Below are positions 11,278 to 48,157 of a stretch of 64,000 nucleotides of DNA, in pieces (positions within the stretch are counted from its first letter, which is position 1; each line of letters starts with the position of its first letter). The notes below the pieces were generated by a model. The model did no database searches and was not told the origin of the DNA. It worked only from the letters and a program-made list of their open reading frames with translations. Position numbers and translations under genes: made by a program. The stretch lies in the NCBI GenBank assembly GCA_964508605.1, contig CAZDUI010000003.1, positions 42,454 to 106,453 of the forward strand, given 5' to 3'. This DNA is from an uncultured Weeksellaceae bacterium (GTDB lineage: Bacteria; Bacteroidota; Bacteroidia; Flavobacteriales_D; CAZDUI01).

Positions 11278-11287
11278 AATTAATAAA

Positions 11288-19628: not shown

Positions 19629-19658
19629 GAGCTTTGTGTTTGTGTTTAGGGGTGAAGA

Positions 19659-19689
19659 TAAAAAAAGCCCCCGAAACCGGAGGCTTTTT
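19659..19689 (-). terminator. rho-independent (bidirectional) terminator hairpin between the YwqK-like gene and polA
   Basis: Plus strand reads AAAAAAA-GCCCCCG-AAAC-CGGAGGC-TTTTT: a 7-bp stem with one mismatch, flanked by A-runs and T-runs. Confidence 0.5.
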
Positions 19690-19706
19690 ATAATAAGGAA
19701 CATTTT

Positions 19707-24032: not shown

Positions 24033-26096
24033 TTGTTTGCAGTCATAAGTTCAAAAGTGAAAGGAAAGATTATAAACCTTTGGTTGTGTGCAAAGTTACT
24101 TGTGCTGGTGGCCGGTGTTATATTTTCTTTCAGTGTAATTGCACAGCCTTTGGTAATTTCAGGGGTATCGCCCGCTGTTCCTTCTTGTGGTGCAAACGAT
24201 GGCGGCATTGTAGTGCAGATTTCAGGTAATTTCGGGCAGGTTACCTATAGCATTGATAATGGTGTGAATTTTCAGGCCTCCGCCACCTTTTCTGGTCTTA
24301 GTGCCGGCTTGTATCAGGTAGTTGCATTAGATTCGGCTGGGTTTTCAGATACGCTGGTTTATGTACTTGCCGGAGATGGTAATTTTATTGGAAGTGTTAA
24401 TGCTGTCGATCCTTTGTGTAACGGAGCATCAAATGGCGAACTTTCCGTTACATTAACCGGTGGCAGCGCTCCGTTTTTATACAGTTTTGATGGTGGAGGT
24501 GTATATGGCTCTTCAGCAACCGCAACAGGATTGCCAACGGGAATTTATAACGTTGTGGTTCAGGACGCGTCTTACTGTTTTGACACAGCTTCGGTTGTCC
24601 TTACAGAACCTGCGGTCGTTTCATTTACGCATTCAGTTATTAATGCAAGTTGCCCGGCAAATGACGGTTCCATAACAATTGCCGCTTCAGGTGGTTCGGG
24701 TGCATTACAATACAGTATTAATGGGGGAACCTCTTTTCAGGCAGGGAATGCATTTACAGGCCTGGCAGTTGGTGTTTACACCATTGTTGTTCAGGATGCA
24801 AATGGGTGCACATCCACTTCAGATGTTATTCTTGGTAGCGCTCCGGGTTTTGGCCCCGATATTATCATGTTAAATCACATTAATCCGTTGTGTAATGGTT
24901 CAGCAAATGGTTCCATTACTGTTATTGCAATGGGTGCTACACCATTAACGTATAGTATCGACGGTGGTTCAACGTTTACGGGAAGCAATGTTTTTACCTC
25001 TTTAACACCGGGTTCTTATCCTGTTATCGCTGCTGACGGAAATGGTTGCTTATCGGGTAGCCTGGTGGTTATTACCGAACCGGGTGTACTGCAATCAGTG
25101 ATTACAGCATTTAACGAAACCTGTGTTGGAGGAGACGGCTCAGTGAATTTATTTACTAGCGGGGGTACATCTCCGTACCAGTATAGTTTTGATGGTGGGG
25201 TTTCATTTTCATCATCCTCTTCTCTGTTAAATCAATCGGGAGGTTCGTTTAATATTGTTGTTACCGATAACAATGGCTGCACAGAAAATGCAACTGTAAC
25301 ATTGACATCGGGCTCGGGACCAACCATTCAAGGCATAAGTGTTGTAAATGCATCTTGTCCGGGTGTTAACGACGGCTCAATAGATATCAGCGCAATAAGC
25401 CAGTCCGGCAGTATTGCCTATAGTATTGATGGTGGCCTTGTGATGCACCCAATAGGATCTTTCTCAAATCTAACTACCGGAACCTATGATGTTTATCTGG
25501 TAGACGCTAACGGATGCTCAACGAGTCAAACTGTCATCATTAGCGGTCCGGTTACTCCATTTGCTGATTTTACTGCGGATGTTAATTCAGGTTTTATACC
25601 ACTTACGGTGAACTTTACGAATAATAGTATTGGGGCAACGGGCAATGATTGGAGTTTTGGTGTAACCGGCGCAACTGCAAATACTACTGACGCAAGTTAT
25701 ACTTATACAACAGGGGGCACTTACGTTGTGATGCTGGTGGTAACCGATGGTGTTTGTAACGACACAGCTACTGTCACAATTGAAGTTGATGGCGAGCCGG
25801 GCATTACGATTCCCAATATCTTTACACCGAATAACGATGGGGTGAATGACTTTTTCTTTGCACAACCTGTGGGAATCACTCAATTGAGTGGAGTAATTTA
25901 TAACAGATATGGCGAGATAGTTTATTTGTGGGAGGGTCCCGAAGGAGGCTGGGACGGAAGAACCATTCCTGCAGGCGTACCCTGTAGCGATGGGGTTTAT
26001 TTTTATTTAATTACCGCCACCGACTTAAATGGGGCACAAATTGAAGAAAAAGGAACGGTACATTTGCTGCGAACAACCAACCCACGTCAGCGTTAA
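24033..26096 (+). CDS. SprB-repeat / PKD-domain cell-surface protein with a T9SS type B (gliding-motility-associated) C-terminal sorting domain
   Basis: At least six repeats of C.G..DGSI..(A/S)GG..P..YSIDGG..F.....F..L..G.Y.V.V.D.NGC, then a PKD-like segment, then a C-terminal IPNIFTPNNDGVNDFF...GVYFYLI motif. Confidence 0.7.
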   Translation: MFAVISSKVKGKIINLWLCAKLLVLVAGVIFSFSVIAQPLVISGVSPAVPSCGANDGGIVVQISGNFGQVTYSIDNGVNFQASATFSGLSAGLYQVVALDSAGFSDTLVYVLAGDGNFIGSVNAVDPLCNGASNGELSVTLTGGSAPFLYSFDGGGVYGSSATATGLPTGIYNVVVQDASYCFDTASVVLTEPAVVSFTHSVINASCPANDGSITIAASGGSGALQYSINGGTSFQAGNAFTGLAVGVYTIVVQDANGCTSTSDVILGSAPGFGPDIIMLNHINPLCNGSANGSITVIAMGATPLTYSIDGGSTFTGSNVFTSLTPGSYPVIAADGNGCLSGSLVVITEPGVLQSVITAFNETCVGGDGSVNLFTSGGTSPYQYSFDGGVSFSSSSSLLNQSGGSFNIVVTDNNGCTENATVTLTSGSGPTIQGISVVNASCPGVNDGSIDISAISQSGSIAYSIDGGLVMHPIGSFSNLTTGTYDVYLVDANGCSTSQTVIISGPVTPFADFTADVNSGFIPLTVNFTNNSIGATGNDWSFGVTGATANTTDASYTYTTGGTYVVMLVVTDGVCNDTATVTIEVDGEPGITIPNIFTPNNDGVNDFFFAQPVGITQLSGVIYNRYGEIVYLWEGPEGGWDGRTIPAGVPCSDGVYFYLITATDLNGAQIEEKGTVHLLRTTNPRQR

Positions 26097-26115
26097 TAAA
26101 GAAAACGTAAAAAGT

Positions 26116-26628
26116 ATGTTAAAGAAGAGTATTGAAAAAGCATTGAACGACCAGGTGAAAATTGAGGCCTTATCGTCTCAGCATTACCTTGCAATGGCCT
26201 CCTGGGCTGAGGTAAAAGGTTACAACGGAACCGCAGAATTTCTTTATACGCATTCAGATGAAGAAAGAATGCACATGTTAAAGTTATTCAGGTATATTAA
26301 CGAAAGAGGTGGCGTTGCTGTGGTTCCGGAGTTGGAAAAACCTGTAACAAATTTTAAAGGACTTGATGAGGTTTTTCAGGCTCTTTTAAATCATGAAATT
26401 AAAGTTTCAGAGGAAATAAACAGTATTGTTGAATTATGCCTAAAGGAAAAGGATTTCACTACTCATAATTTTATGCAGTGGTACGTTAGCGAACAAATGG
26501 AAGAAGAGGCTTTGGCTAAAACCATTATAGACAAGCTGAATTTGTTGCAGGGTGATAAAAGCGGCTTGTATATCTTTGATAAAGATTTGGCTTCCATTCG
26601 CGCATCTATGCAGGTAACTGCAAATTAA
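26116..26628 (+). CDS. non-heme ferritin
   Basis: Ferritin-like di-iron residues (E..H, QHYLAMASWAE, EERMHM, NHEIKVSEEI); the probable start at 26116 avoids overlap with the upstream gene. Confidence 0.85.
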   Translation: MLKKSIEKALNDQVKIEALSSQHYLAMASWAEVKGYNGTAEFLYTHSDEERMHMLKLFRYINERGGVAVVPELEKPVTNFKGLDEVFQALLNHEIKVSEEINSIVELCLKEKDFTTHNFMQWYVSEQMEEEALAKTIIDKLNLLQGDKSGLYIFDKDLASIRASMQVTAN

Positions 26629-26639
26629 TAATTAAACTG

Positions 26640-27188
26640 TTGATGTGGTACCGGCTTGTGATATTGTTTTTACTTGCCGGTAGTTGTTCATTGCCCGGGT
26701 ATTCCCAAAAACGTGGTGGAGGCGGAAGAACTAAAGACGGAAGGGAAACATTTAATTCCCGTAAACAGAAAAATACCTCATACGGTTCTCAAAGAAGAGA
26801 TAGTTTTACTTACAAGTCCAGCCGCTCAAAATCAAAAAGGAGCAACGACCCTTTTGCATACCGCTCTAAACAAAAAGGAAAGGATAAAAACAAATCGGTG
26901 CCTTTTGCATACAAGTCAAAATCGCAAAAGAAATCAAAACAGCGTAACGATAATCTTTTTGGCTCTAAACAGGGTAAAAGTAATGCCAGGAAAGGCGGAA
27001 GTAATAAAGATTCTTTTGTGGGGGGCAGAAATAATTCTTCCAGAATTAAACGAAAGCAGGAACAGCGTGGAGTGGGTGATTTTGGTATCAGTAGAAAAAA
27101 AGCGGACAAGCTGAGGCAAAAGTCCAGAACGAAAGAGGAGAACGGCAAGATTTGGGAGCAGGAATTAAGGCGAAAGCCCAATTCTTGA
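26640..27188 (+). CDS. secreted (possible lipoprotein) lysine/arginine/serine-rich low-complexity protein
   Basis: Signal peptide MMWYRLVILFLLAGSCS; the mature part is about 30% K/R with repeated PFAY(R/K)SK motifs. Overlapping ORFs in other frames look like artefacts. Confidence 0.4.
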   Translation: MMWYRLVILFLLAGSCSLPGYSQKRGGGGRTKDGRETFNSRKQKNTSYGSQRRDSFTYKSSRSKSKRSNDPFAYRSKQKGKDKNKSVPFAYKSKSQKKSKQRNDNLFGSKQGKSNARKGGSNKDSFVGGRNNSSRIKRKQEQRGVGDFGISRKKADKLRQKSRTKEENGKIWEQELRRKPNS

Positions 27189-27276
27189 TATTTTTTGGCA
27201 CAGAATTAGATATTCCCGACGTTCGTCATTGAAATTTGTATTTTTGCGGAAATTCTTAATATAAGGTTACAGGTAC

Positions 27277-27807
27277 GTGATTCGGTTATTAACCATATTA
27301 TCATTGGTTCTGGTGTCTCTCACCGCCTTTTCGCCTGTTAATACATATCAACCTAACAATACTCAGGCTAAGTTCAGAGCATTGTATATTTACCAAATTG
27401 CTACTCTTGTGGATTGGCCTGCTCAATATAAAAATGGAAGTTTTATCATCGGTGTTTTTGGTGATGATAAAGTGTATGATGAGCTTGTTAAAAGTCACGG
27501 AGCTAAAACAGTAGGAAGCCAGCCGCTAAAACTATTAAAGTTCAATTCAGTTGAAGAGGTTTCAAAGTGTCATGTGTTGTACATTGCTCCGGACAAAAAC
27601 AGTTATTCGGCTGAATTGATTAAAAAGTATAAATCCAACAGCACGCTTTTTGCAACTGAATCTGCCGGAATGTTAAAATCGGGTGCCGTGGTTAATTTTT
27701 TAATCCACAACAATAAAGTTGCATTTGAACTTAGCAAAGCTAATGCTACGAAGTATAACCTTGTGGTTACCTCAACCGTTATGAATTATGCCGTAAATAA
27801 GGAATGA
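27277..27807 (+). CDS. YfiR-like periplasmic protein (DUF4154 family)
   Basis: 176 aa; signal peptide; KFRALYIYQIATLVDWP... pattern characteristic of DUF4154/YfiR. Confidence 0.55.
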   Translation: MIRLLTILSLVLVSLTAFSPVNTYQPNNTQAKFRALYIYQIATLVDWPAQYKNGSFIIGVFGDDKVYDELVKSHGAKTVGSQPLKLLKFNSVEEVSKCHVLYIAPDKNSYSAELIKKYKSNSTLFATESAGMLKSGAVVNFLIHNNKVAFELSKANATKYNLVVTSTVMNYAVNKE

Positions 27808-28688
27808 AGAAACTTATTACCATATGGTTTGTTTTCACCGCACTGATTTCAGGCGCGCAGATTTCCTATACCCACAAGGCATTTAAAGCGTATCAGGAAA
27901 ATAAGCTGGATATAGCCAGGGCTTATATTGATACAGCCATAACCGTATCCGCAGAGGCATCTTCCGCACAGACATGGCATATTAGAGGCTTTGTTTATAA
28001 GGAAATTTTTAAACTACAGGAGGCAGAAGATCATAAATCTCCTTCAAGAGAGGAATCATTAAAAGCCTTTATTAAATCTTCAGAGTTAGACGAAACGGGT
28101 GAGTTCAAGACGCAGAATGACAAAGGAATTTATTACATTGCTACTTCATTCTATAACCAAAGTGTTCTTACTCAGAACCCAACGCAATACCTTCTTTCCA
28201 TTGAATTATACGAGCGTTCAAAGGAAGTACACCGCCAACGAGACCCTGGATTCAACTCCGACAAGAAAGATGTTGAATTTTATAACGCGCTGGGCAGCAT
28301 GTTGAGCGAAACCTATGAACGCAACAAAGTAAAATATGCCGATTATGCCGACCTTGCTATTAAGTATTTGCAAGTATCTCTCAAAATTGAGTTAGATAAT
28401 CTTACTGCAAATCAATTAATTGGTGTATTATATTACAACAAAGGCGTTGATTTGATCTTAAATCTTAGTCCTGATGCTTCTTTGGATGAATTGATAAAAG
28501 TTCAGGATCTCTGCGTTGAATTGTTCCTAAAATCTGAACCATATTTGCTGCAGGCACATAAAAAGGATCCCACCAATTGTGAAATTATGACAGGATTAAA
28601 AGGTGTTCGCTTCAATCTTAATGATAAAGAGCAAGTTAAGCTTTGGGACGACAAACTTCGCGAACTCGGTTGTCCTGTTGATGAATGA
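27804..28688 (+). CDS. hypothetical secreted helical protein (294 aa)
   Basis: Signal peptide MKKLITIWFVFTALISGAQ; ATGA overlap with the upstream gene; helical (TPR-like) composition. Confidence 0.4.
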   Translation: MKKLITIWFVFTALISGAQISYTHKAFKAYQENKLDIARAYIDTAITVSAEASSAQTWHIRGFVYKEIFKLQEAEDHKSPSREESLKAFIKSSELDETGEFKTQNDKGIYYIATSFYNQSVLTQNPTQYLLSIELYERSKEVHRQRDPGFNSDKKDVEFYNALGSMLSETYERNKVKYADYADLAIKYLQVSLKIELDNLTANQLIGVLYYNKGVDLILNLSPDASLDELIKVQDLCVELFLKSEPYLLQAHKKDPTNCEIMTGLKGVRFNLNDKEQVKLWDDKLRELGCPVDE

Positions 28689-28752
28689 TTTCTTTGAACA
28701 TCCCGTTATTTTTTTGAATATTTGACGGTTCGAAACAAGAGTTCGGTACCGG

Positions 28753-30585
28753 ATGAAAGTAAAATTTACAATAGGACGCAAGATAGGCACTGGTTTTGGT
28801 GTGCTTATATTCTTCATTATCATTGTATTTACTATAACCGCCAATACAGTCAGAGAAGGTATTGAGAGTTTTACCCAAAGCCGGGAACTAAACGAGAAGA
28901 TTACAACACTGTTCGATCCGTCTATCAAACAGGTTACCCTGCTGAAAGAAAAAATAAAGGAAAGCAAAAGACTTATACAAAACTGGGTAAACTCACCCAG
29001 CAGAGAGGATAACCCCGAGAAAATTCAGTTAAAAATACTTCTGTCTGATGTGATTCCCAAGACCCAGGACACGCTGACATCCTTACAGGCCCGGTGGGAT
29101 TCAGAAACCGAACAGCTATTATTGAAAAAAGTAAATGCCAATCTGGACACGCTTTTTGAGTATTATCAAATAATAATGGACCACTTGCCTGATTTGGGCA
29201 GTTATGACGACCCCATTGCGTTTCTTTCGGCGCGCGACTATGTAGTGCCTAATGGTCTTATTGACATCAAAAGCCAGCAGGTAGATAATTTGATTTCAGA
29301 TTTGATAAACCGCCAGAGTAAGTCGCGGCGATACGCTATCAGAATGCAAAACGAGTCATCGCAGGAAACCACCTACTCCTTTGACAATCTTTTGAAATTG
29401 GTAATTATTTTGGGTATTGCCCTTATGATTGGCGCTACCCTTATTGCCACATTTACTACCCGTTCTATTGTGCGTCCGGTTCACGAGCTGCGTGACGTGT
29501 TGTTAGGTTTGGGCAGGGGGTTGTTTCCGCGGAAAACCCTTCGTCCAACCAGAGATGAAATTGGGGAAATGGGTGATGCACTGAATTCACTGGTGGATGG
29601 TCTGAAGCGTACAACGGAGTTTTCCAAACAGGTAGGTTCCGGTAATTTTGACTACGATTATTTACCTTTGAGTGATGATGATACTTTGGGTCATGCATTG
29701 CTTAAAATGAGAGACGACCTTGCCGAAAACGAGCGCATATTGGAACAAAAAGTGGTAGAACGTACCGAAGAGGTGGTTCGGCAGCGCGACGAAATTGAGA
29801 GGCAGCGCATGAAGGTTGAGGAACTGTATAAAGATGTTACAGACAGCATTCGTTACGCAAAAAGACTACAAGATAGCATATTGCCGCCCGAGAGATATAT
29901 TCAGCAAATTCTACCCAACAGCTTTGTATTGTTTAAACCCAAGGATATTGTTTCAGGTGATTTTTACTGGTTTGAGCAAAGTAAAGGTAAAATTTTGTTT
30001 GCCGCTGTTGACTGTACCGGTCATGGTGTACCCGGAGCGTTTATGAGTTTGGTGGGAGCAAATGCTTTGAATCAGGCTGTAAGAGAACATGGACTTACCA
30101 AACCATCTGAAATTCTTGACGATTTAAACAAGCTTTTAAGCGAAGCCCTGAATAAAGGCATGGAAGAACAGGCTGTGAGAGACGGTATGGATTTGGCCTT
30201 GTGTGCTATAGACCCGGAAAAAAGAACCCTTGAATTTGCCGGGGCAAATAACCCTTTATATCTGGTAAGAAACGGAGAATTAATTCAAACTAAACCCGAT
30301 AAACTGGCAATTGGCGGAATGGACCATGGTGCCCATAAATATAGGAATCATCAGGTAGAAGTTGCGTCAGGCGATATCATTTACATTTTTAGTGACGGTT
30401 ACGCCGATCAGTTTGGTGGAGAAAAAGGTAAAAAATTCATGTACAAACAGTTCAAAGAGACTTTGAAGGAAATAGCGCCGCTTCCAATGAATAAACAAAG
30501 AGATGAATTGAACCGCATTATTGAAAATTGGAGAGGAATTTACGAGCAAATTGATGATATATTGATAATTGGTGTAAAATTGTAA
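28753..30585 (+). CDS. membrane sensor protein phosphatase: TM-periplasmic domain-TM-HAMP-coiled coil-PP2C (SpoIIE/RsbU-like)
   Basis: Two TM helices (aa ~14-36 and ~213-235) flank a ~175-aa extracytoplasmic domain; a HAMP segment follows; the C-terminal PP2C region carries SGDFYW...AVDCTGHGVPGAFMS...DGMDLAL...FSDGYADQ. Confidence 0.75.
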   Translation: MKVKFTIGRKIGTGFGVLIFFIIIVFTITANTVREGIESFTQSRELNEKITTLFDPSIKQVTLLKEKIKESKRLIQNWVNSPSREDNPEKIQLKILLSDVIPKTQDTLTSLQARWDSETEQLLLKKVNANLDTLFEYYQIIMDHLPDLGSYDDPIAFLSARDYVVPNGLIDIKSQQVDNLISDLINRQSKSRRYAIRMQNESSQETTYSFDNLLKLVIILGIALMIGATLIATFTTRSIVRPVHELRDVLLGLGRGLFPRKTLRPTRDEIGEMGDALNSLVDGLKRTTEFSKQVGSGNFDYDYLPLSDDDTLGHALLKMRDDLAENERILEQKVVERTEEVVRQRDEIERQRMKVEELYKDVTDSIRYAKRLQDSILPPERYIQQILPNSFVLFKPKDIVSGDFYWFEQSKGKILFAAVDCTGHGVPGAFMSLVGANALNQAVREHGLTKPSEILDDLNKLLSEALNKGMEEQAVRDGMDLALCAIDPEKRTLEFAGANNPLYLVRNGELIQTKPDKLAIGGMDHGAHKYRNHQVEVASGDIIYIFSDGYADQFGGEKGKKFMYKQFKETLKEIAPLPMNKQRDELNRIIENWRGIYEQIDDILIIGVKL

Positions 30586-30589
30586 CGTC

Positions 30590-31171
30590 ATGACAGAATG
30601 GTGGTCGCAACTTTCAGGAATGGAACAGGTTTATTGGGGATTTGCCATTCCGGCAACCATAATATTCCTTGTTCTTTTGGTACTTACGTTAATTGGCGGT
30701 GAAGCGGAACACGTAGACATCAACACTGACGTTGATTTAGATGGTGACGCTACTCCCGGAGGATTTCAGTTTATTACTGTCAAAAATCTGGTAGGTTTTT
30801 TCACCGTTTTCGGATGGGCAGGCATTTCGGCACTGCAGGGTGGAGCCGGAAACACCACATCCCTCATTATTGCTTCTGCATCGGGTTTTGGAATGATGTT
30901 GCTAATGGCTGCTTTGTTTTATTATATGAGCAAACTTCAGCACAGCGGAACATTGAACGTTTCAAATGCTATGAATATGACGGGTGAGGTTTACTTAACT
31001 ATTCCCGCTTCTAAGAAGGGCTTGGGAAAAGTGCAAATTAAAATACAGGGTTCGTTGCGCGAATTGGAAGCAATGACCGACGAAAACGAAGAAATTCCAA
31101 CAGGAAGAGCAATTCAGGTTACAGGTATTACACAAAGTGATATTTTAATAGTTAGAACAATAAATAATTGA
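30590..31171 (+). CDS. NfeD-like / YqiJ-family membrane protein (flotillin partner)
   Basis: 193 aa; N-terminal TM helices and a C-terminal beta-rich OB-like domain; 4-nt gap to the flotillin gene. Confidence 0.55.
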   Translation: MTEWWSQLSGMEQVYWGFAIPATIIFLVLLVLTLIGGEAEHVDINTDVDLDGDATPGGFQFITVKNLVGFFTVFGWAGISALQGGAGNTTSLIIASASGFGMMLLMAALFYYMSKLQHSGTLNVSNAMNMTGEVYLTIPASKKGLGKVQIKIQGSLRELEAMTDENEEIPTGRAIQVTGITQSDILIVRTINN

Positions 31172-31175
31172 AGTT

Positions 31176-32825
31176 ATGATGTTAATGGCAGATGAATTTA
31201 TACCCGGAGTAAGTGAGAGCCTTGTGGTTTTGATTGGCCTGATTGTGGGCTTTATTGTATTGATTCTGCTTACGTTTGCAAGACGTTACAGGCGGTGTCC
31301 TTCTGATAAAATTCTTGTTGTTTACGGCAAGGTGGGCGGCGATCAGCGTTCCGCACGCTGTATTCATGGTGGTGCTGCGTTTATTTGGCCCATCATTCAG
31401 GATTTTGCTTTTCTTGAATTAAAGCCGATTCCAATTGAAGTAAATCTTACCAATGCCCTGTCCAAGCAAAACATTCGTGTAGACGTACCGTCCAGGTTTA
31501 CCGTGGGTATTTCAACCGAGCCTGCCATTATGAACAATGCTGCCGAACGCTTGCTTGGCTTGACACCATCGCAGATACATGACATTGCCAGGGATATAAT
31601 TTTTGGACAACTCAGATTGGTCGTGGCTACAATGGATATTGAAGAAATTAACAGCAATCGCGATAAATTTCTTGCGAATGTTAGTGCCAACGTTGAACAG
31701 GAATTGAAAAAAATAGGTCTTCGACTTATTAACGTAAACGTAACCGATATTAAGGACGAGTCGGGGTATATTGAGGCACTGGGTAAAGAAGCAGCTGCTA
31801 AAGCCATTAACGATGCCCGTAAGAGTGTGGCTGAAAAGAACCGCGACGGTTCCATTGGTGAAGCCAACGCGATGCAAGACCAAAGGGTTCAGGTTGCCGA
31901 TGCAAATGCGCTTGCCAAAATTGGTGAAGCACAGGCACAACAGAAAGAAAGGGTAGAAATTTCAACCGCAAATGCAGAGGGAGCCATTGGTGAAGCGAAT
32001 GCAAATCAGTTGGAAAGAGTTCAGACGGCAGATGCTGAATCAAAAGCTAAAATTGGTGAAGCGCAAGCAAAACAGCGGGAACGCGTGGAAACAGCTGAAG
32101 CCAATGCACGTGCCATTGAAGGCGAAAACACTTCAAAAATAGCCATTGCTGAATCGGATGCTGCGCGTCGTGAAAAACAAGCTGAAGCTGAAAGAAGGGC
32201 TATTGCATCAGAAAAAGTACAGGCAGCAAAGGCATTGGAAGAAGCATACAGTGCTGAAAAACATGCTGAAATTGTTCGTGCTGAAAGAGAAAAGGCTTCA
32301 CAAAATGCCGACATCATTGTTCCTTCGGTAATTGCCAAAGAGAAGGCAGAAATTGATGCTGAAGCCCGTGCCGAGCAGATTCGAAGAATAGCCAAAGGTG
32401 AAGCCGATGCGTTATTGATGAGAAAACAGGCCGAAGCACAAGGTTTGTATGAAGTACTTACCAAACAGGCTGAAGGTCTTGACAGAATTGTTAAAGCGGC
32501 AGGCGATGATGCACGTAATGCTGTGTTGCTGTTGATTGCTGATAAGCTTCCGGAATTGGTTAAAACGCAGGCCGAAGCTATCAAGAATATTAAAATTGAC
32601 AAAATTACTGTTTGGGACGGTGGTTCGGGAACCGACGGAAAGACCAACACAGCCAACTTTATATCAGGACTGTATAAATCAGTGCCGCCACTTGAAGATA
32701 TGTTTAATATGGCAGGCATGGAGCTGCCGGCTTATCTGAGAAAGAAGACAGAACCACTGCCAGAGACAACCCAAGTGACAGATAAAGATTCTGCTGCGAG
32801 TGACGAAGAAAAACCGGTTCAGTAA
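31176..32825 (+). CDS. flotillin family protein (SPFH/band-7 domain; YqiK/FloT-like)
   Basis: N-terminal TM; SPFH domain; a long EA-rich coiled coil with three ~30-aa IGEA(N/Q)A... repeats; C-terminal tail. Confidence 0.8.
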   Translation: MMLMADEFIPGVSESLVVLIGLIVGFIVLILLTFARRYRRCPSDKILVVYGKVGGDQRSARCIHGGAAFIWPIIQDFAFLELKPIPIEVNLTNALSKQNIRVDVPSRFTVGISTEPAIMNNAAERLLGLTPSQIHDIARDIIFGQLRLVVATMDIEEINSNRDKFLANVSANVEQELKKIGLRLINVNVTDIKDESGYIEALGKEAAAKAINDARKSVAEKNRDGSIGEANAMQDQRVQVADANALAKIGEAQAQQKERVEISTANAEGAIGEANANQLERVQTADAESKAKIGEAQAKQRERVETAEANARAIEGENTSKIAIAESDAARREKQAEAERRAIASEKVQAAKALEEAYSAEKHAEIVRAEREKASQNADIIVPSVIAKEKAEIDAEARAEQIRRIAKGEADALLMRKQAEAQGLYEVLTKQAEGLDRIVKAAGDDARNAVLLLIADKLPELVKTQAEAIKNIKIDKITVWDGGSGTDGKTNTANFISGLYKSVPPLEDMFNMAGMELPAYLRKKTEPLPETTQVTDKDSAASDEEKPVQ

Positions 32826-32849
32826 TTTCTAAAGAATCCGGTTTTATTC

Positions 32850-35800
32850 ATGCGTAAATTACTATTTATATTGCTTGTTTTGACGCATATGCGTGCAAAT
32901 ACGCAAGACAATATACGGTTTCTGAATATTGACATTAACAGTGGTATTTCTCAAAGTTCAGTAAATGCAATCTTACAAGACCAGTTGGGATTTGTTTGGT
33001 TTGCAACGCAAGATGGATTAAACAGGTTTGATGGTTATCGGTTTAAAGTTTATCGGAATAATCCCGATAACAGCAATACCATTAGCAATAATTTTGTTCA
33101 GTGCCTTGAACAGGACGAAACCGGTATTATTTGGGTAGGTACGCAAAGCGGATTGAATTCCTTTGATCCGGAAACAGAAAGATTTAACAGGTATGCCGCC
33201 GGAGAACAATCAGGATTGGGAAGCAATAAAATTACGACTGTCTTTTATTCAGGTTCGCATAGATTGTTTATTGGCACTCAGGATGCGGGTCTATATGAAA
33301 GAACCGGTGAAAGTAAGTTCAATAAGGTAAAACTCGATGCCTCCGGGGTGCGTTCTGTTTTTGAGGATGCTGCCGGAAGAATTTGGGTTTGTTCAAACAA
33401 CGGTTTGTATTTAAACAATGAAGGAGAGTACAGGAGAATAATGCCTAACAACATCGGGGAAGCCTGGACCATTACGGAAGATACATCAGGGGTATTCTGG
33501 GTGGGAAATATTAATGGTTTATACCGACTGACACCTGCAGGGAAGGAATTTTTATTTGAAGAATTTCAAAACATCACGTATCTGGCCAATTTTCCGGGAA
33601 TTCGCTGCTTAAAAACCGACGGTGACAATAATATCTGGGTTGGAACCAACGGAAAAGGGGTATTTAGTTTTTCGGCTTCAGAAGACGAACCAGCCATTCA
33701 CCGGTACCGCAAGCAGAGTTTCAATCCGTATAGTTTGCAAAGCGATGAAGTGTATTGTTTGGTTGAAGACCACCAGGGTATTTTATGGATAGGTACAAAA
33801 GACGGGGTGAGCCGTTTTGACAGAATTCGTCAGGGTTTTTTACACGTAGCCCGCGATTATGACAACATCAATTCGCTGCACGACAATACTATCTGGAGTT
33901 TTCAGGAGAGTTCGCCCAATAAATTACTGATAGGAACCCGTAGAGGTGTAACCCTTTGGAATAGAGGTACAGGTGAATTCTATGAATTTCAGCGGGAAGC
34001 AAATAATCCTAATACTCCCAACGATAACAGTGTGCTGTCTTTGTGTGTTGACAAACAGGGCAACATATATACAGGTTATGTAGATGGGGTATTTCGTTTG
34101 GTTATCGACCCTGAGGGAAGAGGAACTTTTAGCGAAATAAAAATCAGGGACAACACACCGGCGGGTGCCGATATGCGGGTGTATGCAATTAAAGAAGACA
34201 ATCAAAACAGGTTGTGGATTGGTACCCGCGAAGGGTTGGCAGTTTACGATAAAAAGACAGGCAAATCTGTTTTTTACAGGAACAATCCGGAAGACAGCAA
34301 AAGCCTTCCTGAGAACATGATTCGTGCGGTGTACATTAATTCACAGAACGATATCTGGATTGGAACGGATGGTGGCGGGTTGTGCAGGGTGATTGAACGT
34401 AATGGAAGAATGGAATTTATTGCATTCAACAAGCAATCAGAAATTCAAATTCCAAGCAATTCAGTATTGTCTGTTTGGGAAGAGAAACCGGGTATTCTTT
34501 GGTTGGGAACATACGGAGGGGGGCTAATCAGGTTTGATTACAAGAACAAAAAGTATTCAGTGTTTTCTGAAGTAAGCCACGGCCTGGCGAATGATGTAAT
34601 ATATGGAATACTGGGTGATAATAAGAATAATTTATGGCTAAGTACTAATAGCGGGCTTTGCAGGTTTAATATAAAAAACCTGAATGTAAAAAACTTTAAG
34701 CAAAAGGACGGAATTCAAAGCAACGAATTCAACATCGGTGCTTATGGTATCACTTCTCAGGGTGAGTTTTTGTTCGGTGGAATCAACGGGTTCAATGTTT
34801 TTCACCCGGAGCAGATTCGGACGAATATGTTTGCACCCAAAATGGTGTTCACCGATTTTTTAATCAATAATGAACCCTATGTAATTGGCGCAAACTCTGA
34901 TTTTGAAAAGGCGCTAACCTATACCCATCAAATTAATCTGAATCACAAGGACAACAAATTTACAATAGAATTTGCAGCACTTCATTATAGCGACCCTGAT
35001 GGAAATCAGTATAAATATAAATTGGTGGGTATTGATAAGGACTATACCTACACGAAAGGTGGCGACCGCAGAGCAAATTATTCGAATTTACCTCCCGGTG
35101 AATATACTTTTGAATTATACGGAGCAAACAGCGATGGCCGGTGGAGTAAAGAACCGGTGAAGTTGAAAGTTGTAATTATTGCGCCATACTGGCGTACCGA
35201 TTGGTTTCAGGGAGTGGTGATTCTTATTATTTTAAGTGCAACATTTTACGTGTTTATGCGGCAGGTTAAAGAGATACGGCAACAGAAGATGCGATTGGAG
35301 AGATTAGTGGAAGAGCGCACGCGTGAGGTAATCCAGCAAAAGGAGAAAATTGAAGAGCAGACGGCCATGTTGAAAATGGAAAAAGAGAAAGTTGAGAAGT
35401 TATTGCTGAATGTGTTACCCGAGCAAACAGCAGATGAATTAAAAAGCAAGGGGAAGGCCCAGGCCCGTAGTTATAAACAGGTAACCATAATGTTTACCGA
35501 TTTTAAGAACTTTACCAAGCTGGCTGAACAATTCCGGCCACCCGAGCTGGTAGAGCGTTTAGATGCTTACTTCAGTAAGTTTGATGATATTATCAGCAAA
35601 TATCAGCTCGAAAAAATTAAGACGATTGGAGATGCATATATGTGTGCGGGCGGCGTTCCTGTGAGAAATGCTGAAAATCCAATTTATACAACACTGGCGG
35701 CACTTGAAATTCAGGATTATATAAAGAAAGATAAAGAGGAGAGGTTGGCTGCGAATGAAATACCCTGGGAACTGAGAATTGGTATCAATACCGGCGAAGT

Positions 35801-36698
35801 GGTTGCCGGGGTGATAGGGTCAAAGAGATTTGCATACGATGTATGGGGTAATGCCGTAAATGTGGCCGCCAGAATGGAAACGGCTAGCGAACCGGGCAAA
35901 GTTAACGTTTCGGGAAAAACCTTTGAATTAATTGAACCCTTCTTTGAATGTACCTACCGTGGTAAAATTCCGGCAAAAAACAAAGGACATATTGATATGT
36001 TCTTTGTTGAGCGGATTAAGCCGGAATTGAGTGTTAACGGCGAAGGTTTATATCCGTCTCAGGCCTTTTGGGATTACGTAAATCTGCATTTATTCAGCAG
36101 TATTAACTATATGAAAGCAGAGCGGTTTATTATGAAACTGCTTGAGAAAAAATTATCGCCAAAACTACATTATCACAGTATAGCCCATACCCGTGATGTA
36201 ACCAAAGCTGCTGAAAGAATTGCGTTGATGGAGGGTGTGCGCGGCGAAGACCTGTTCCTGTTACAAACAGCGGCTACCTATCATGATGCCGGTTTTGTGG
36301 AACGGTATGAGGCCAATGAACCCATTGGAGTGCGTATGGCACGCGATATTCTTCCCAGATATGGGTATGAACCCGATCAAATTGATATTGTTGCCGGTTT
36401 AATCTATGCCACCCGCATCCCTCATGCGCCCAAAAGTCACCTGCAGGAAATTATTTGTGATGCCGACTTGGATTATTTGGGAAGAGATGATTTTCATGAA
36501 ATTGCCGATAAATTAAGAATAGAATTGCGCGAGCACGGAAAAATAAACAGCGACCGCATGTGGGATGAAATCCAGGTGAAATTTCTTACTCAACATAAAT
36601 ACTTCACCCGTTCTGCCATAAAATTAAGACAGGAAAAAAAGGAAAAGCACATTGAAGAGATTAAGGAAAAGCTCAAGGTGCATCAGTATGCGGATTAA
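32850..36698 (+). CDS. multidomain sensor: signal peptide, two-component-regulator beta-propeller (Reg_prop repeats), Y_Y_Y domain, TM, coiled coil, class III adenylate/guanylate cyclase, C-terminal HD phosphohydrolase domain
   Basis: Recurrent W.GT..GL..(F/Y) propeller repeats; Y_Y_Y region (KYKLVGIDKDYTYT...YTFELYGANSDGRWS); TM VVILIILSATFYVF; cyclase motifs VTIMFTDFKNFT and IKTIGDAYMCAGG; HD motifs HSIAHTRDV...YHDAGF...ICDADLD. Confidence 0.75.
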   Translation: MRKLLFILLVLTHMRANTQDNIRFLNIDINSGISQSSVNAILQDQLGFVWFATQDGLNRFDGYRFKVYRNNPDNSNTISNNFVQCLEQDETGIIWVGTQSGLNSFDPETERFNRYAAGEQSGLGSNKITTVFYSGSHRLFIGTQDAGLYERTGESKFNKVKLDASGVRSVFEDAAGRIWVCSNNGLYLNNEGEYRRIMPNNIGEAWTITEDTSGVFWVGNINGLYRLTPAGKEFLFEEFQNITYLANFPGIRCLKTDGDNNIWVGTNGKGVFSFSASEDEPAIHRYRKQSFNPYSLQSDEVYCLVEDHQGILWIGTKDGVSRFDRIRQGFLHVARDYDNINSLHDNTIWSFQESSPNKLLIGTRRGVTLWNRGTGEFYEFQREANNPNTPNDNSVLSLCVDKQGNIYTGYVDGVFRLVIDPEGRGTFSEIKIRDNTPAGADMRVYAIKEDNQNRLWIGTREGLAVYDKKTGKSVFYRNNPEDSKSLPENMIRAVYINSQNDIWIGTDGGGLCRVIERNGRMEFIAFNKQSEIQIPSNSVLSVWEEKPGILWLGTYGGGLIRFDYKNKKYSVFSEVSHGLANDVIYGILGDNKNNLWLSTNSGLCRFNIKNLNVKNFKQKDGIQSNEFNIGAYGITSQGEFLFGGINGFNVFHPEQIRTNMFAPKMVFTDFLINNEPYVIGANSDFEKALTYTHQINLNHKDNKFTIEFAALHYSDPDGNQYKYKLVGIDKDYTYTKGGDRRANYSNLPPGEYTFELYGANSDGRWSKEPVKLKVVIIAPYWRTDWFQGVVILIILSATFYVFMRQVKEIRQQKMRLERLVEERTREVIQQKEKIEEQTAMLKMEKEKVEKLLLNVLPEQTADELKSKGKAQARSYKQVTIMFTDFKNFTKLAEQFRPPELVERLDAYFSKFDDIISKYQLEKIKTIGDAYMCAGGVPVRNAENPIYTTLAALEIQDYIKKDKEERLAANEIPWELRIGINTGEVVAGVIGSKRFAYDVWGNAVNVAARMETASEPGKVNVSGKTFELIEPFFECTYRGKIPAKNKGHIDMFFVERIKPELSVNGEGLYPSQAFWDYVNLHLFSSINYMKAERFIMKLLEKKLSPKLHYHSIAHTRDVTKAAERIALMEGVRGEDLFLLQTAATYHDAGFVERYEANEPIGVRMARDILPRYGYEPDQIDIVAGLIYATRIPHAPKSHLQEIICDADLDYLGRDDFHEIADKLRIELREHGKINSDRMWDEIQVKFLTQHKYFTRSAIKLRQEKKEKHIEEIKEKLKVHQYAD

Positions 36699-36841: not shown

Positions 36842-39800
36842 ATGAAAGTTTTATTGGGTTTAATATTTGCGGTTTTAACACTATTACAGGCCAACGCAAT
36901 TTCCTACACTTGGAATGGGGTCATCTCATCTGACTGGAATACAGCTACAAACTGGACTCCCGCTGGGATACCGGGATTAGGTGATGATGTAATTGTTGTG
37001 GCGGCACCAAATAATTGTGGTTTAGATGCACCACGAACCATACTAACAATTACTGTGAATTCGGGTACTTTAGATTTAAACACAAACACATTGATGGTAA
37101 CATCAACCACCACCCTGACAGGAGGTAATGTAGATAACGGAGTGTTGACAGTTGTTGCCGCTTCTACCGACGTTGCCACCATGGGAGGTACCGTATTTGG
37201 AGGTGCTTCTTTTTTGAATATTACCTCAGGAAGAATAATATTGAATGGTGGTCAATACAGCGGCCCCGTAGTTTTAGAGCAGACCGGTTCAACCAACACC
37301 GGTGGTACCGGTAACGCTACGTTTAATGCATCTCTGTCGTTTACATTGTCGGGTACCGGATACTGGAGAATTGCAGGGAACTCTGTCTTTAACAGTACCG
37401 TGACCTATATAAATAACGGAGGTAGTTATATTCTGCCTGAACTTTCTGCAGCCAATACTTATAACGGTACTTTGAGTGTTCAAAACAATTCTTCGTCTAA
37501 TATAAGACTTGCATATAACGGCGCCAACCAGTATTTTGGTGATATTGATATTTCCAATACATCTACCGGTTCAGTCCTTTTTTGTGAACTGACTACGGGT
37601 TCTGCATCTCTTCAAGGAGCGGCAACATTGTTTGCCGGAGCCGGCGGAATAAATTCGGGTAGCATAACGTTAAGAAGAATTACACAAGTGAACCCCACTG
37701 CCATTAATCTTTCCGGTGGCCTAAATGCAACTATCAATATAACAGATTGCGTGTGGCAGGGTAATGTTAGTTTCGCAAGTGGCAGACTTACCACCAATGG
37801 CTCCGTATATAATGGACCTGCTCGTCTCGAAAAAACATCAATAACTGCTGACTACAGCGGAGGTAATACTTTTAACAGTACAGCAAATCTGGTTCATACG
37901 GGTTCTGTGAACTCTTTCCGGTTCGGAAGGACTAATCCCGACACTTTTAATGGAGATGTTTTAATAGAAAACTATAACGATGGTCATATTCGGCTAGCTG
38001 ACAATACTACAGGCAATGCTATAAACGGTGATCTTACAGTAATCAATAACTCAACCAATTGGGTATATTTTTGTAATGAAGGCACCTCTGATCTTTTGAT
38101 AAACGGAAATATTGAATTTAATTCAACAGGGTCATCTTTGGGTGTTAGTTTTGGAACGAGCGGTAATCCGGTAACCCAGGCTGCAGGTTTTAATCTAACT
38201 ATAGGCGCAACAGGTTGGGATGCCGGAGAATTGAGATTTACTGATTTTGTTCAATCCGGAGCATCAGCAGTAAATTTAACCCTAAACGGTAATGGCTTCT
38301 TTAATTCCGTAAATTCGGACTGGGCGGGAAATATGTCTGTAATAGCGCCACGAATTCGTACAAGCTTTTCTGATTTTCAAGGCACTGTGTCGTTTGAAAA
38401 GACCAGTGGAACAGATGATGTTTCTGGTGGTAATGTGTTTCATCAGAACACGTTGCTAATTCACAGCGGTGCAAATGATTTCAGATTCGGGCAAACCAAT
38501 GCCGATATGTTCCATCAACAGTTGCGTGCAAGAAACAATGGTACAGGCACCGTTTATCTGGCGTATAATTCGGCGGGAAATCAATTCAACGGCAATGTGC
38601 TTTTTGAAAACATTACCGGTGGCGGGGTATATGTTTGCGAAAATTCGGGTACAGCAACCCTGGCTAACGGATTTTCATTCCAGGTAGGTCCACTGGGTTT
38701 TGCAAATGGTCAGTTACGAATTCGCAATACCACTCAAATAGGTAATACAGCCCAGAATATTACTACAAGCGGAGCTTCTCGAATTATATTGTCAGATAAT
38801 TCCTTTGACGGAGCGGTAGCCTTTACCAGCGAACGAATGTTTCTTAGCGGAAATACATTTAATTCTCAGGCCGTGTTTACAAAAAACGGAGCAGGTAATG
38901 ACGCTTCTGCCGGTGGAAATATTTTTAACGGACCTACTTTCCTTTCACTTTCAGGTACCGGCTATTTTTTAATGGCCAATGTGAATCCAGATATTTTTAA
39001 TGACGACCTTTCGGTGAATAATTCTGGTTCAGAATTCGTACATCTTTCATATAATGCTGCCGGAAATGAATTTAACGGTGATGTAACGTTTGAGTCGGTG
39101 GGTAGTGCCGGTGTCAGAATAGGAATAAATGGTGGCACAACAACACTTGCAAATGGCTCAACATTAACTGTGGGTGCTTTGGGTTATAATTCCGGTGAGC
39201 TGCGTTTTCAAAATTTTACGCAATTGGGCAATACACCACAAACGCTGGCGCTGAGCGGTACCTCCCGGTTGCTTTGTCTTGAATCGGTATGGAATGGTAA
39301 TGTTTCCTTTGAATCTCCACGTGTTTATACCCGCGGAACAGTGTATAACGGTACTGCTCTTTGGCATAAAACAGGCACTACAGATGATGGTTGCGCGGGC
39401 AATAATATCTTTAATCAACCAACTCAGATTTTAAATTCATCTGCTTCTATTTTATACTTCAGCCAAACAAATCCCGATATTTTTAATGCTTCGCTTTCAA
39501 TAAGAAATACAGGCACATCCACTATCAGATTGGCTGAAAGTTCTACAGGTAACCAGTTTAACGGAGATATTACTATAGAATCAACGGGTAGCGGTGGAAT
39601 CTTTTTTGGCCAGGGTGGAGGCGATGCCTTTTTGGCAAACGGTTTTACAGTAACCGTAGGTGCACCGGGCTTTGACTCCGGAGAGTTAAGATTCAATAAA
39701 TTTACACAGCTTGGCAATACTGCACAGAATATAACATTAACCGGAACTGCATATTTGTTGAATATGGAAAGTAATTGGAACGGAACTGTAAGTTTTGCTG

Positions 39801-43957: not shown

Positions 43958-45232
43958 TTAGTTTTCAATACCTACCACCACAGGTTCCGGCCGAAAGGTT
44001 TGAAGGATAGCGCTTTCGTATGGGTTAGTTTTATCACATGGGTTCAAAAACAAAGGTTTTCCCGCAACAGCTATGAAAAGTCCCGGCAGTGCATTCCAGT
44101 TAGTACCGGTTAAGGTATCAAAGGGCACAATCCCTGTAACATAATGTCTGCCTTTTGATGTGTATTTTTCATTAATTTCTGTAAACGGAATCTGGTGTAA
44201 TAATGCCTCATCTCGGGCAGAAGCATATATTTCCAGATAAAAACTGTTTGAAAAATGTAATTCTGCTAAGGTACTCTGTTTTCTGTATTCGTAGGCATAC
44301 CCGTACTGCAATGCGCTAACATCGCTTAGCACTGCGCTACCGGTGGGGAAACTGCCTGCTCCCTTGCCAATAAATAGCTGACGGTCGCTGAAAAGTGCTT
44401 CGGTTACCACAGCATTGAATTCGTTGTGCACGTTCCAGGCAAAATGATCCTCATTAATAAAATGCGGAGCAACAAAACCCACAACAGTATTATCTACCCT
44501 TGCCGCATAGCTGAATAATTTGATGCGAAGTCCTTTTTCACGTGCAAACTGAACGTCGTGTTCGTCAATATTTCTTATTCCATAATTAAAAATTTGGTCG
44601 GGGTGAACAACCAGTCCAAAAGCATGGGCAATTAAAATTTGCAACTTGAATTTGGCATCGTAACCATCAATGTCCATGGTTGGATCGCTTTCTGCAAATC
44701 CTTTTTCCTGAGCCTCTCTTAAAACCTCAGAAAAAGAATTCCCGGTCTTAAATAATCCGGTAAGAATATAATTGGTGGTTCCGTTGCAAATACCGCTGAT
44801 GCAGCTTAAAGAATCGTTGTTGTAATATTCTTCCAGATTCCGGATAATGGGTATGCTTCCACACACGGCACCTTCGTATAAAAAGGAAACGCCGTGGGCT
44901 CTGCTTAATTCAAGTAATTCATTCAAGTGGTGCGATACCATTTTTTTATTGGCCGTTACAACACTTTTACCCCGAATAATTGCTTCTTTTACAATGTTGT
45001 ATGCTTCTTCGGCGTCGTCTATTAACTCTACAACTACGTTGATTTGTGGATCATCAAGAAGGTCGTATTTATTATAGGTGAAATTTTCAGCAGGAATGTC
45101 CCGGGGTTTATCAGGATTTTTCACACATATTTTTTGCAGATGTGCATTCAGTAATTTGCTTTCGTTTAATGTTCGGTATAAGCCGGTGCCAACGCATCCG
45201 TATCCAAAAAGCCCGATATTTAATTTTTTCAT
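43958..45232 (-). CDS. hom: homoserine dehydrogenase
   Basis: GLFGYGCVGTG Rossmann motif; 424 aa; lies in the met gene cluster. Confidence 0.85.
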   Translation of the reverse strand: MKKLNIGLFGYGCVGTGLYRTLNESKLLNAHLQKICVKNPDKPRDIPAENFTYNKYDLLDDPQINVVVELIDDAEEAYNIVKEAIIRGKSVVTANKKMVSHHLNELLELSRAHGVSFLYEGAVCGSIPIIRNLEEYYNNDSLSCISGICNGTTNYILTGLFKTGNSFSEVLREAQEKGFAESDPTMDIDGYDAKFKLQILIAHAFGLVVHPDQIFNYGIRNIDEHDVQFAREKGLRIKLFSYAARVDNTVVGFVAPHFINEDHFAWNVHNEFNAVVTEALFSDRQLFIGKGAGSFPTGSAVLSDVSALQYGYAYEYRKQSTLAELHFSNSFYLEIYASARDEALLHQIPFTEINEKYTSKGRHYVTGIVPFDTLTGTNWNALPGLFIAVAGKPLFLNPCDKTNPYESAILQTFRPEPVVVGIEN

Positions 45233-45239
45233 GGTTTCT

Positions 45240-46328: not shown

Positions 46329-46334
46329 TTTTAA

Positions 46335-46784: not shown

Positions 46785-46786
46785 GG

Positions 46787-48157
<1,371 letters not shown>

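Follow-up and report, generated by a model that had tools for sequence, protein, structure and literature searches.

Do six neighbouring genes that encode a periplasmic regulator, two membrane sensors and a flotillin constitute one envelope-sensing device, or several devices that share a stretch of chromosome? The question is raised by a co-directional gene block in an uncultured Weeksellaceae bacterium (phylum Bacteroidota), which we analysed within a 64,000-nucleotide stretch of contig CAZDUI010000003.1 (positions 42,454 to 106,453; hereafter the window, whose numbering is used throughout). The initial annotation of this DNA, made from the sequence alone, had proposed a single sensing unit organised by a flotillin raft. 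Our comparison with related loci leads us to regard the block as probably a composite operon of three modules that are linked to different degrees. Genes for a YfiR-like protein and a TPR-like protein form a set with a HAMP-PP2C phosphatase gene, a cyclase-HD gene appears to have been recruited to this set, and an NfeD-flotillin pair is an optional addition. The features of the block are as follows, with the evidence for each in brackets.

27189..27276, plus strand: 88-nucleotide intergenic region 5' of the YfiR-like gene (carries a Bacteroidota-type -7 motif)
27277..27807, plus strand: YfiR-family (DUF4154) periplasmic protein, 176 amino acids (aa) (Pfam, NCBIfam, signal peptide)
27804..28688, plus strand: secreted TPR-like helical-repeat protein, 294 aa (AlphaFold, Foldseek; weak TPR Pfam matches of homologues)
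28753..30585, plus strand: inner-membrane sensor phosphatase, HAMP-PP2C, 610 aa (Pfam, NCBIfam, PDB 6k4e)
30590..31171, plus strand: NfeD-family membrane protein, 193 aa (AlphaFold and Foldseek)
31176..32825, plus strand: flotillin, 549 aa (Pfam Band_7, NCBIfam FloT, PDB flotillin-1/2)
32850..36698, plus strand: sensor adenylate cyclase-HD protein, 1282 aa (Pfam, PDB adenylate cyclases, motifs)

In the list of open reading frames (ORFs) of the window, six plus-strand ORFs fill 27277-36698 with the same start and stop positions as first annotated. The intergenic gaps, in gene order, are -4, 64, 4, 4 and 24 nucleotides (nt). The tight co-directional packing that had been described therefore stands, but the range of 4-88 nt given for it does not, as 88 nt is the space 5' of the first gene and the internal gaps run from -4 to 64 nt. 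All of the earlier domain calls held: a DUF4154 first gene, a secreted helical protein, a HAMP-PP2C phosphatase with two transmembrane (TM) segments, an NfeD/YqiJ-like protein, a flotillin with an SPFH domain, and a fusion of propellers, cyclase and HD domain. Pfam matches support DUF4154, HAMP, SpoIIE, Band_7, Reg_prop, Y_Y_Y, Guanylate_cyc and HD, and structure supports NfeD. Topology was read from hydropathy.

Gene linkage across related loci

The comparison covered about 110 related loci. A phosphatase-side scan of species-representative genomes supplied its best 80 loci, 25 of which (L001-L024, L043) also match the N-terminal sensor half of the phosphatase; seven further genomes were added by context look-ups, and the window proteins were compared by tblastn. 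The denominators below are the 29 loci with enough upstream DNA and the 25 with at least 4 kb downstream.

The YfiR-like and TPR genes lie directly 5' of the phosphatase gene at 28 of the 29 loci, and the TPR gene always stands between the YfiR-like gene and the PP2C gene. These trio loci come from metagenome-assembled genomes labelled Flavobacteriales, Vicingaceae, Cytophagales and Sphingobacteriaceae, and phosphatase identity falls as low as 39%; the sole exception to the linkage, L023, is the most divergent locus (36% identity). The other genes are linked less often. Of the 25 loci, 10 have a cyclase-HD gene directly after the phosphatase or flotillin gene, and all of these belong to a single clade of a neighbour-joining phosphatase tree. 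NfeD-flotillin is present at 5 of the 25 and in each case separates the phosphatase gene from the cyclase gene. The full set of six is carried by the window, L081, L087, L084 and L085, the phosphatases of the last four being 53-80% identical to that of the window. In all five, 2-45 nt separate the phosphatase stop codon from the NfeD start, and gene spacing in the four loci other than the window is 2-113 nt. The trio occurs with the cyclase and without flotillin in L082 (66% phosphatase identity), L089 (Paracrocinitomix mangrovi), L004, L005 and L013; in L010 the cyclase-HD gene is about 6.5 kb distant. Taken alone, the first genome-scan loci gave the flotillin pair in none of 17, and it is the closer relatives from the look-ups that carry it.

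The search for a conserved neighbourhood thus gave a divided answer: the six-gene order does recur, in L081, L087, L084 and L085, but only the trio is linked wherever it could be followed, bar the one divergent locus. The six genes are real and conserved, and chance is no concern. Nonetheless, the claim that they form one unit fails on the linkage counts for the cyclase and the flotillin pair, and on L082 and L089, where phosphatase and cyclase are adjacent with no flotillin between them. Judged by gene order and sequence comparison, the real unit of the block is the trio of YfiR-like protein, TPR protein and HAMP-PP2C phosphatase.

Six-gene, four-gene and trio-only loci are interleaved within the cyclase clade of the neighbour-joining phosphatase tree, and the present arrangements therefore reflect either repeated loss or repeated gain at one junction. 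Pairwise identities of phosphatase and cyclase are correlated (Spearman 0.80, over 45 non-independent pairs), which is consistent with long co-residence of the two genes.

A convergent tandem-Usp gene (about 276 aa; 18189-19019 of L081, minus strand) closes the locus in many relatives. The window has no tandem-Usp gene at that position and carries a gene for an 1843-aa type IX secretion system (T9SS) cargo protein there instead (36842-42373).

One reading of such patchy linkage is that these are neighbours with no joint function: trio, flotillin pair and cyclase would be units independent of one another, the junction between phosphatase and Usp genes would tolerate insertions, and the arrangement would have been kept by descent. 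The tandem-Usp gene abuts the cyclase gene in L081, L082, L084, L005 and L013 and the phosphatase gene in the trio-only loci L001-3, L012 and L021, so that cyclase and flotillin occupy a variable slot. The upstream genes for RNase R, a SprB/CHU_C protein and ferritin are also conserved in relatives, and part of the synteny is therefore inheritance; moreover, NfeD-flotillin is self-contained everywhere else. Yet four or six genes remain contiguous and tightly spaced in loci whose outer flanks are wholly different: a MacB/OEP efflux system lies upstream in L084, L085 is flanked by GH3 and ABC genes upstream and by GldH downstream, and in L087 a methyltransferase is encoded upstream and a response regulator downstream. 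Spacing of 2-12 nt is typical for the genes of an operon and not for independent units, and the co-divergence of phosphatase and cyclase also speaks against independence. We consider this explanation unlikely.

The NfeD-flotillin pair

The flotillin is readily recognised (Pfam Band_7, E 4e-29; PDB flotillin-1/2, E 2e-23; NCBIfam FloT, E 1.4e-49, under the cutoff of that model). It has one N-terminal TM segment (residues 16-34), an SPFH/Band_7 domain and an Ala/Glu-rich coiled-coil region. The 193-aa protein encoded before it has no match in Pfam, in NCBIfam or in a phmmer search of the PDB. Its AlphaFold model (predicted local distance difference test score, pLDDT, 80) consists of TM helices and a C-terminal beta-barrel of the OB fold, and the top three PDB matches of this barrel in Foldseek are the soluble domains of NfeD proteins: YuaF (2k14, E 2e-5), 3cp0 and PH1510-C (3wwv). 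Some of its homologues carry PF25842 (NfeD_TM). On the strength of the modelled structure we assign the protein to the NfeD family, on which the sequence profiles are silent.

The NfeD family to which it belongs is common in Flavobacteriia, among them Zobellia, Polaribacter and Maribacter, and the NfeD-SPFH operon type has long been known (Green et al. 2009, J Mol Evol, cited in PMC9239133). We surveyed the pair from its own side by scanning metagenomes with an NfeD alignment and listing the best 80 loci. A flotillin gene (53-70% identity) lies directly 3' of the NfeD gene in 76 of these 80, and the remaining four end within 417 nt. Homologues of the YfiR-like, TPR, PP2C and cyclase-HD proteins occur near NfeD-flotillin in none of the 80 listed loci. 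At least 3 kb of upstream DNA is present in 42 of the 80, and the pair stands alone in all 42. Because it stands alone in these loci with the flotillin constantly adjacent, NfeD-flotillin is a self-sufficient two-gene module.

Known operons of this kind (yuaF-floT of Bacillus subtilis, yqiJK of Escherichia coli) share with the block a gene for a small NfeD OB-barrel protein directly 5' of one for a flotillin, which has about 500-550 aa. They differ in their setting: in the window and four other genomes the pair sits inside a signalling operon with no intergenic space of its own, whereas elsewhere in Bacteroidota it is alone. In L147 (10001-13171 and beyond), where the pair stands alone with neither trio nor cyclase, a homologue of the 1843-aa T9SS cargo protein of the window is encoded some 3 kb downstream of the NfeD gene; this position may be an alternative chromosomal home of NfeD-flotillin in a related lineage.

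The stand-alone loci bear directly on the idea that all six products form one envelope-sensing signalosome, in which a flotillin/NfeD scaffold concentrates both sensors and the YfiR-like protein gates one or both. The six-gene order is found in five divergent loci with unrelated flanks, the short distance from phosphatase stop to NfeD start in all five implies co-expression, and the insert always falls at the one junction that separates the two membrane sensor genes. A scaffolding role for membrane signalling proteins is known for bacterial flotillins (for example PMC4409396). Against this, the flotillin pair is absent from 20 of 25 trio loci, including close relatives in which phosphatase and cyclase are adjacent, and signalling genes lie beside NfeD-flotillin in none of the 42 loci with at least 3 kb upstream. 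The flotillin of the block is 53-83% identical to flotillins of stand-alone and block loci alike; block-linked flotillins are no more similar to one another than to stand-alone ones and are not clearly monophyletic in a core-domain tree, although the dynamic range of tree and pairwise identities is too small to separate one ancient insertion from several. We hold a six-protein signalosome to be quite unlikely, and the proposal that flotillin organises the sensing unit has to be given up. As phosphatase and cyclase are adjacent without flotillin, and the pair stands alone elsewhere, it is not the organising principle and is at most an accessory.

A narrower form of the idea supposes that in this lineage NfeD-flotillin was captured as a dedicated scaffold. 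It would join the YfiR/TPR-gated phosphatase and the propeller-sensing cyclase-HD protein in one membrane microdomain, where periplasmic signals from the two sensors would converge and the phosphatase would adjust the synthesis or hydrolysis of cyclic AMP (cAMP). We rate such a capture as distinctly improbable. If it were true, the captured scaffold would be a genetically hard-wired bacterial raft signalosome.

The phosphatase and its candidate periplasmic partners

The first protein of the trio matches the Pfam DUF4154/YfiR-HmsC-like family above the gathering score (E 4e-28). It also matches two NCBIfam models, TOL_0243 YfiR-like (NF053591; E 1.7e-27, 96 bits, under the 125-bit cutoff) and sequest_YfiR (E 1.4e-5). 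A phmmer search of the PDB did not reach the YfiR structures, and the family assignment therefore rests on Pfam and NCBIfam. The hydrophobic N-terminus (residues 1-19) reads as a signal peptide, and the protein contains only one cysteine. The redox sensing of YfiR relies on disulfides, and with a single cysteine that mechanism cannot apply here.

The TPR gene overlaps the YfiR-like gene by 4 nt. Its product has no Pfam match of its own, and its homologues match TPR_11, TPR_19 and TPR-S weakly. The AlphaFold model (pLDDT 92) is an all-helical, TPR-like solenoid whose top PDB matches in Foldseek are all TPR proteins. The protein has a signal peptide, no lipobox cysteine and no OmpA match, and what had been called a secreted helical protein is thus predicted to be a secreted TPR-like solenoid.

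The phosphatase matches HAMP (E 1.5e-7) and SpoIIE (E 6e-23) in Pfam. It consists of a first TM segment (11-29), a periplasmic helical domain of about 185 aa, a second TM segment (216-234), HAMP, a conserved linker/coiled coil and the PP2C domain. Residues 283-609 match NCBIfam SiaA (NF038263; E 1.6e-73, 248 bits against a 700-bit cutoff), and the N-terminal sensor half has no match to that model. Among solved structures, PDB 6k4e (E 1e-43), which we take to be the PP2C domain of SiaA, comes closest to the PP2C domain of the block. The catalytic Asp motifs of PP2C are intact and invariant among the aligned orthologues, and by these motifs the phosphatase looks active. Its relatives are numerous: 7999 proteins at E <= 1e-20, of which the best 120 are full-length and 52-99% identical.

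The periplasmic domain has no CHASE8 or YfiN-type match, and the region from TM2 to HAMP matches NCBIfam NF053592 weakly (E 0.008). An HMMER search with residues 1-290 returned 294 cluster representatives of varied length at E <= 1e-10, and Pfam shows the same sensor-plus-HAMP module joined also to PAS-PP2C, GAF-histidine kinase, hybrid kinase and MCP outputs. In L170 (315-4850) the gene for an MCP-output version stands in a row with a DUF4154 gene, which lies 16 nt upstream of it, and with a gene for a TonB-dependent receptor downstream; the pairing of YfiR-like protein and sensor module extends here beyond the phosphatase output.

Two further observations concern PP2C proteins of the same kind. 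In the trio-only locus L088 (11907-15799) the phosphatase gene is followed by a gene for a 1153-aa protein with a faint DUF4175 match and then by one for a 141-aa HATPase_c_2 kinase, RsbW/SpoIIAB-like. This kinase could be a locally encoded partner-switch component of a kind that the window lacks. Among the Bacteroidota loci L027-L073 (for example L031, L035, L042, L054 and L057), many paralogues fuse a Reg_prop/Y_Y_Y sensor straight to a phosphatase-like PP2C domain, often in tandem arrays of several PP2C genes.

The cyclase-HD protein

All four domains of the last protein of the block are found by Pfam (Reg_prop, E 7e-46; Y_Y_Y, E 2e-15; Guanylate_cyc, E 9e-50; HD, E 9e-7). A signal peptide is followed by Reg_prop beta-propellers and Y_Y_Y, a TM segment (785-803), a coiled coil, a class III cyclase domain and an HD phosphohydrolase domain, and about 760 extracytoplasmic residues precede the single TM segment. 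The hybrid two-component systems of Bacteroides likewise have Reg_prop propellers and a Y_Y_Y sensor before a single TM segment, but their output is a histidine kinase, receiver and AraC domain, whereas here it is a putative adenylate cyclase and an HD hydrolase.

The metal-binding, transition-state and specificity motifs of the cyclase are present as FTDF, KTIGDAYM, YDVWG and NVAARME. We read the Lys of KTIGDAYM (924) and the Asp of YDVWG (996) as adenylate-type specificity residues, and the best PDB matches of the domain are the adenylate cyclases AC5/AC9 (1e-48); by motif reading, then, the enzyme is a class III adenylate cyclase. In the HD domain (36015-36695) the H..H, HD and D motifs and a DADLDYLGRD motif are all invariant, and the domain is the best-conserved part of the protein, at 63-86% identity versus 41-65% overall. 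Against the PDB, single-sequence and profile searches with the HD domain found only designed repeat proteins and a weak match to the generic HD hydrolase 2pq7 (E 0.15). With catalytic motifs intact in both domains, both enzymes look active, and the fusion may be bifunctional, one enzyme that makes and breaks a nucleotide messenger.

Anti-phage defence of the Pycsar type was considered and rejected as a role for the block: the best PADLOC match (4e-17) reflects generic cyclase similarity, as the Pfam match of 9e-50 indicates, and the other five proteins had no PADLOC match.

The neighbouring phosphatase might control this enzyme, either directly at a phospho-site or through an unlinked switch protein, in the logic of SiaA, SiaC and SiaD. 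The PP2C domain is closest to SiaA, the two genes are adjacent and co-diverging in 10 loci, and SiaABCD itself couples a HAMP-PP2C phosphatase to a nucleotide cyclase, according to excerpts of PMC7647112 and PMC8457831. But no SiaB/SiaC-like or STAS gene was found in the block or among the scanned ORFs of the window, Pfam recognises no phospho-acceptor domain in the cyclase protein, and 15 of 25 trio loci have no cyclase nearby, so that the phosphatase must have another target. Control of the cyclase by the phosphatase therefore seems to us very improbable.

Relation to known systems

Two characterised systems resemble the block in part. In excerpts of PMC2837407, PMC3375315 and PMC4655355, YfiR represses YfiN from the periplasm and releases it. 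The YfiBNR/HmsCDE systems of Pseudomonas, E. coli and Yersinia share with the block a DUF4154 gene beside an inner-membrane HAMP sensor with a periplasmic domain, and a third envelope protein. They differ at each component: their output is a GGDEF diguanylate cyclase, whereas the block has a PP2C Ser/Thr phosphatase and no GGDEF protein; their sensor has a YfiN-type periplasmic domain where the block sensor has a helical region of about 185 aa; and YfiB is an OmpA/Pal-like outer-membrane lipoprotein in place of the soluble TPR protein. Their hosts are Proteobacteria, and the host here belongs to the Bacteroidota. With neither a GGDEF protein nor an OmpA-like YfiB, the block is not a YfiBNR system. 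The analogy with YfiR that had accompanied the initial annotation survives in one respect, a DUF4154 protein encoded beside a membrane sensor, and not in the other, as its likely partner is the periplasmic domain of the phosphatase and not a diguanylate cyclase.

SiaABCD of Pseudomonas aeruginosa shares with the block a membrane HAMP-PP2C phosphatase whose gene lies next to a nucleotide cyclase gene. The SiaA model matches the C-terminal half of the block phosphatase (248 versus 700 bits) but not its N-terminal sensor half. The cyclase of SiaABCD is a GGDEF protein, and that of the block is a predicted class III adenylate cyclase-HD protein with its own extracytoplasmic sensor. Neither the block nor the scanned ORFs of the window contain a SiaB kinase, a SiaC switch or a SiaD GGDEF protein, and the block is not a SiaABCD system. 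By analogy, the block plausibly works like both YfiBNR and SiaABCD.

A curated precedent for the pairing is the NCBIfam TOL_0243 YfiR-like family, in which a YfiR-like protein accompanies a non-GGDEF sensor ('sensor histidine kinase, YfiR-like protein-associated'). The partner there is a histidine kinase and here a phosphatase, and the YfiR-like score is under the cutoff (96 versus 125 bits). From their sub-cutoff NCBIfam scores, we read the YfiR-like protein, the phosphatase and the flotillin as relatives of TOL_0243, SiaA and FloT, not as members.

A literature search, in which not all journals were covered, turned up no earlier account of the trio, the cyclase-HD fusion or the six-gene block, in agreement with the initial annotation, for which no description of the combination was known. 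The well-supported novelty is the trio; the link to flotillin exists but is optional. Detailed knowledge of YfiR-type control in the periplasm is confined to one target, the proteobacterial diguanylate cyclase YfiN. In several orders of Bacteroidota the trio is found almost throughout its phosphatase family. It suggests a YfiR-type gatekeeper coupled to Ser/Thr-phosphatase (partner-switch) signalling, with the TPR protein as a new third component. It is also an entry point to envelope sensing in a phylum whose SpoIIE-type phosphatases and Reg_prop sensors are very abundant and almost unstudied. Furthermore, loci with the trio only, with the cyclase added, and with flotillin and cyclase added make a comparative series for asking whether flotillin has specific signalling clients.

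A probable composite operon

Starting from the observed gene content, domains, topology, linkage frequencies and co-divergence, we infer the protein-protein interactions and the direction of regulation of the composite operon as follows. The trio would be module A. By analogy with YfiR and YfiN, its YfiR-like protein may bind the periplasmic domain of the phosphatase and set the activity of the enzyme. The TPR protein would be a second periplasmic partner, an adaptor or a sequestering factor, in the logical position of YfiB without being homologous to it, and on that analogy is probably a lineage-specific third partner. The substrate of the phosphatase would be a switch protein phosphorylated on Ser/Thr (STAS-, RsbV- or SiaC-like), whose gene would lie at another place in the genome.

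The cyclase-HD protein would be module C, a separate envelope sensor in which a class III adenylate cyclase, joined to an HD hydrolase with intact catalytic motifs, is driven by extracytoplasmic propellers and Y_Y_Y. In one clade this module would have been recruited to the position directly downstream of module A and have co-diverged with the phosphatase, so that the phospho-switch and cAMP (or related nucleotide) outputs would be co-expressed, probably in one response. Module B would be an ordinary, normally stand-alone NfeD-flotillin pair inserted between A and C in a patchy subset of that clade. Its expression would be tied to that of the signalling genes because it begins 2-45 nt from the phosphatase gene, and it would be dispensable for the partnership of A and C.

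The close co-directional spacing of the block is consistent with a single transcript, and it is from this spacing that we infer co-transcription. An exact search for TAnnTTTG found TATTTTTG at 27239, 5' of the first gene, as the sole intergenic Bacteroidota-type -7 motif of the block. A terminator scan found no terminator-like sites on the plus strand between the block genes. In a combined scan for sigma-70 promoters and terminators, counts equalled the shuffle expectation; the sigma-70 model is unsuited to Bacteroidota.

Several observations weigh against the composite operon as drawn here. The TAnnTTTG site 5' of the first gene is not conserved at that position in relatives, and scattered intragenic matches to the motif occur. 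The loci are not a random sample, and cross-matching of NfeD-bearing contigs supplied two of the five six-gene loci. No STAS, RsbW or SiaB/C protein that could serve as substrate or kinase of the phosphatase was found by Pfam in the scanned flanking and small ORFs of the 64-kb window. Finally, L171 and L172, which carry kinase-output versions of the sensor, have no recognisable DUF4154 gene upstream, and these are two of the three cases with another output. With the MCP-output locus as the one positive case of three, there is limited support for the view that YfiR-like proteins pair with this sensor domain and not with one particular output.

Genomic surroundings of the block

The block lies among Bacteroidota chromosomal housekeeping genes and T9SS cargo genes, in DNA of uniform guanine-plus-cytosine (GC) content. 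A mobile island found no support, as the GC content of the block equals that of its flanks and no integrase occurs among the scanned ORFs of the window. Upstream lie genes for RNase R, a SprB/CHU_C protein and ferritin; downstream, the 1843-aa protein (36842-42373) carries a Por_Secre_tail domain. A ferritin homologue is found 2-7 kb 5' of the phosphatase gene in 19 of the 28 trio loci.

In the ORF list, ferritin (26029-26628, 199 aa) overlaps with the last part of the SprB/CHU_C gene (24033-26096). As the ferritins of relatives have 169-175 aa, its start is probably the ATG near 26116. Between ferritin and the YfiR-like gene, 26640-27188 holds an ORF for a Lys/Arg/Ser-rich protein of 182 aa with a hydrophobic, lipoprotein-like N-terminal leader and no Pfam or NCBIfam match. 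The same slot in L081, L085 and L088 is occupied by ORFs of 153-291 aa without a tblastn match to it.

Elsewhere in the window, two tandem OmpH/Skp-like genes (10768-11791) follow an 830-aa ORF (8250-10742), DNA polymerase I is encoded on the minus strand (16857-19703), and an RCC1-repeat T9SS cargo gene lies at 49902-51296. Methionine and homoserine metabolism genes at 43958-48139, on the minus strand, are likewise part of an ordinary chromosomal context.

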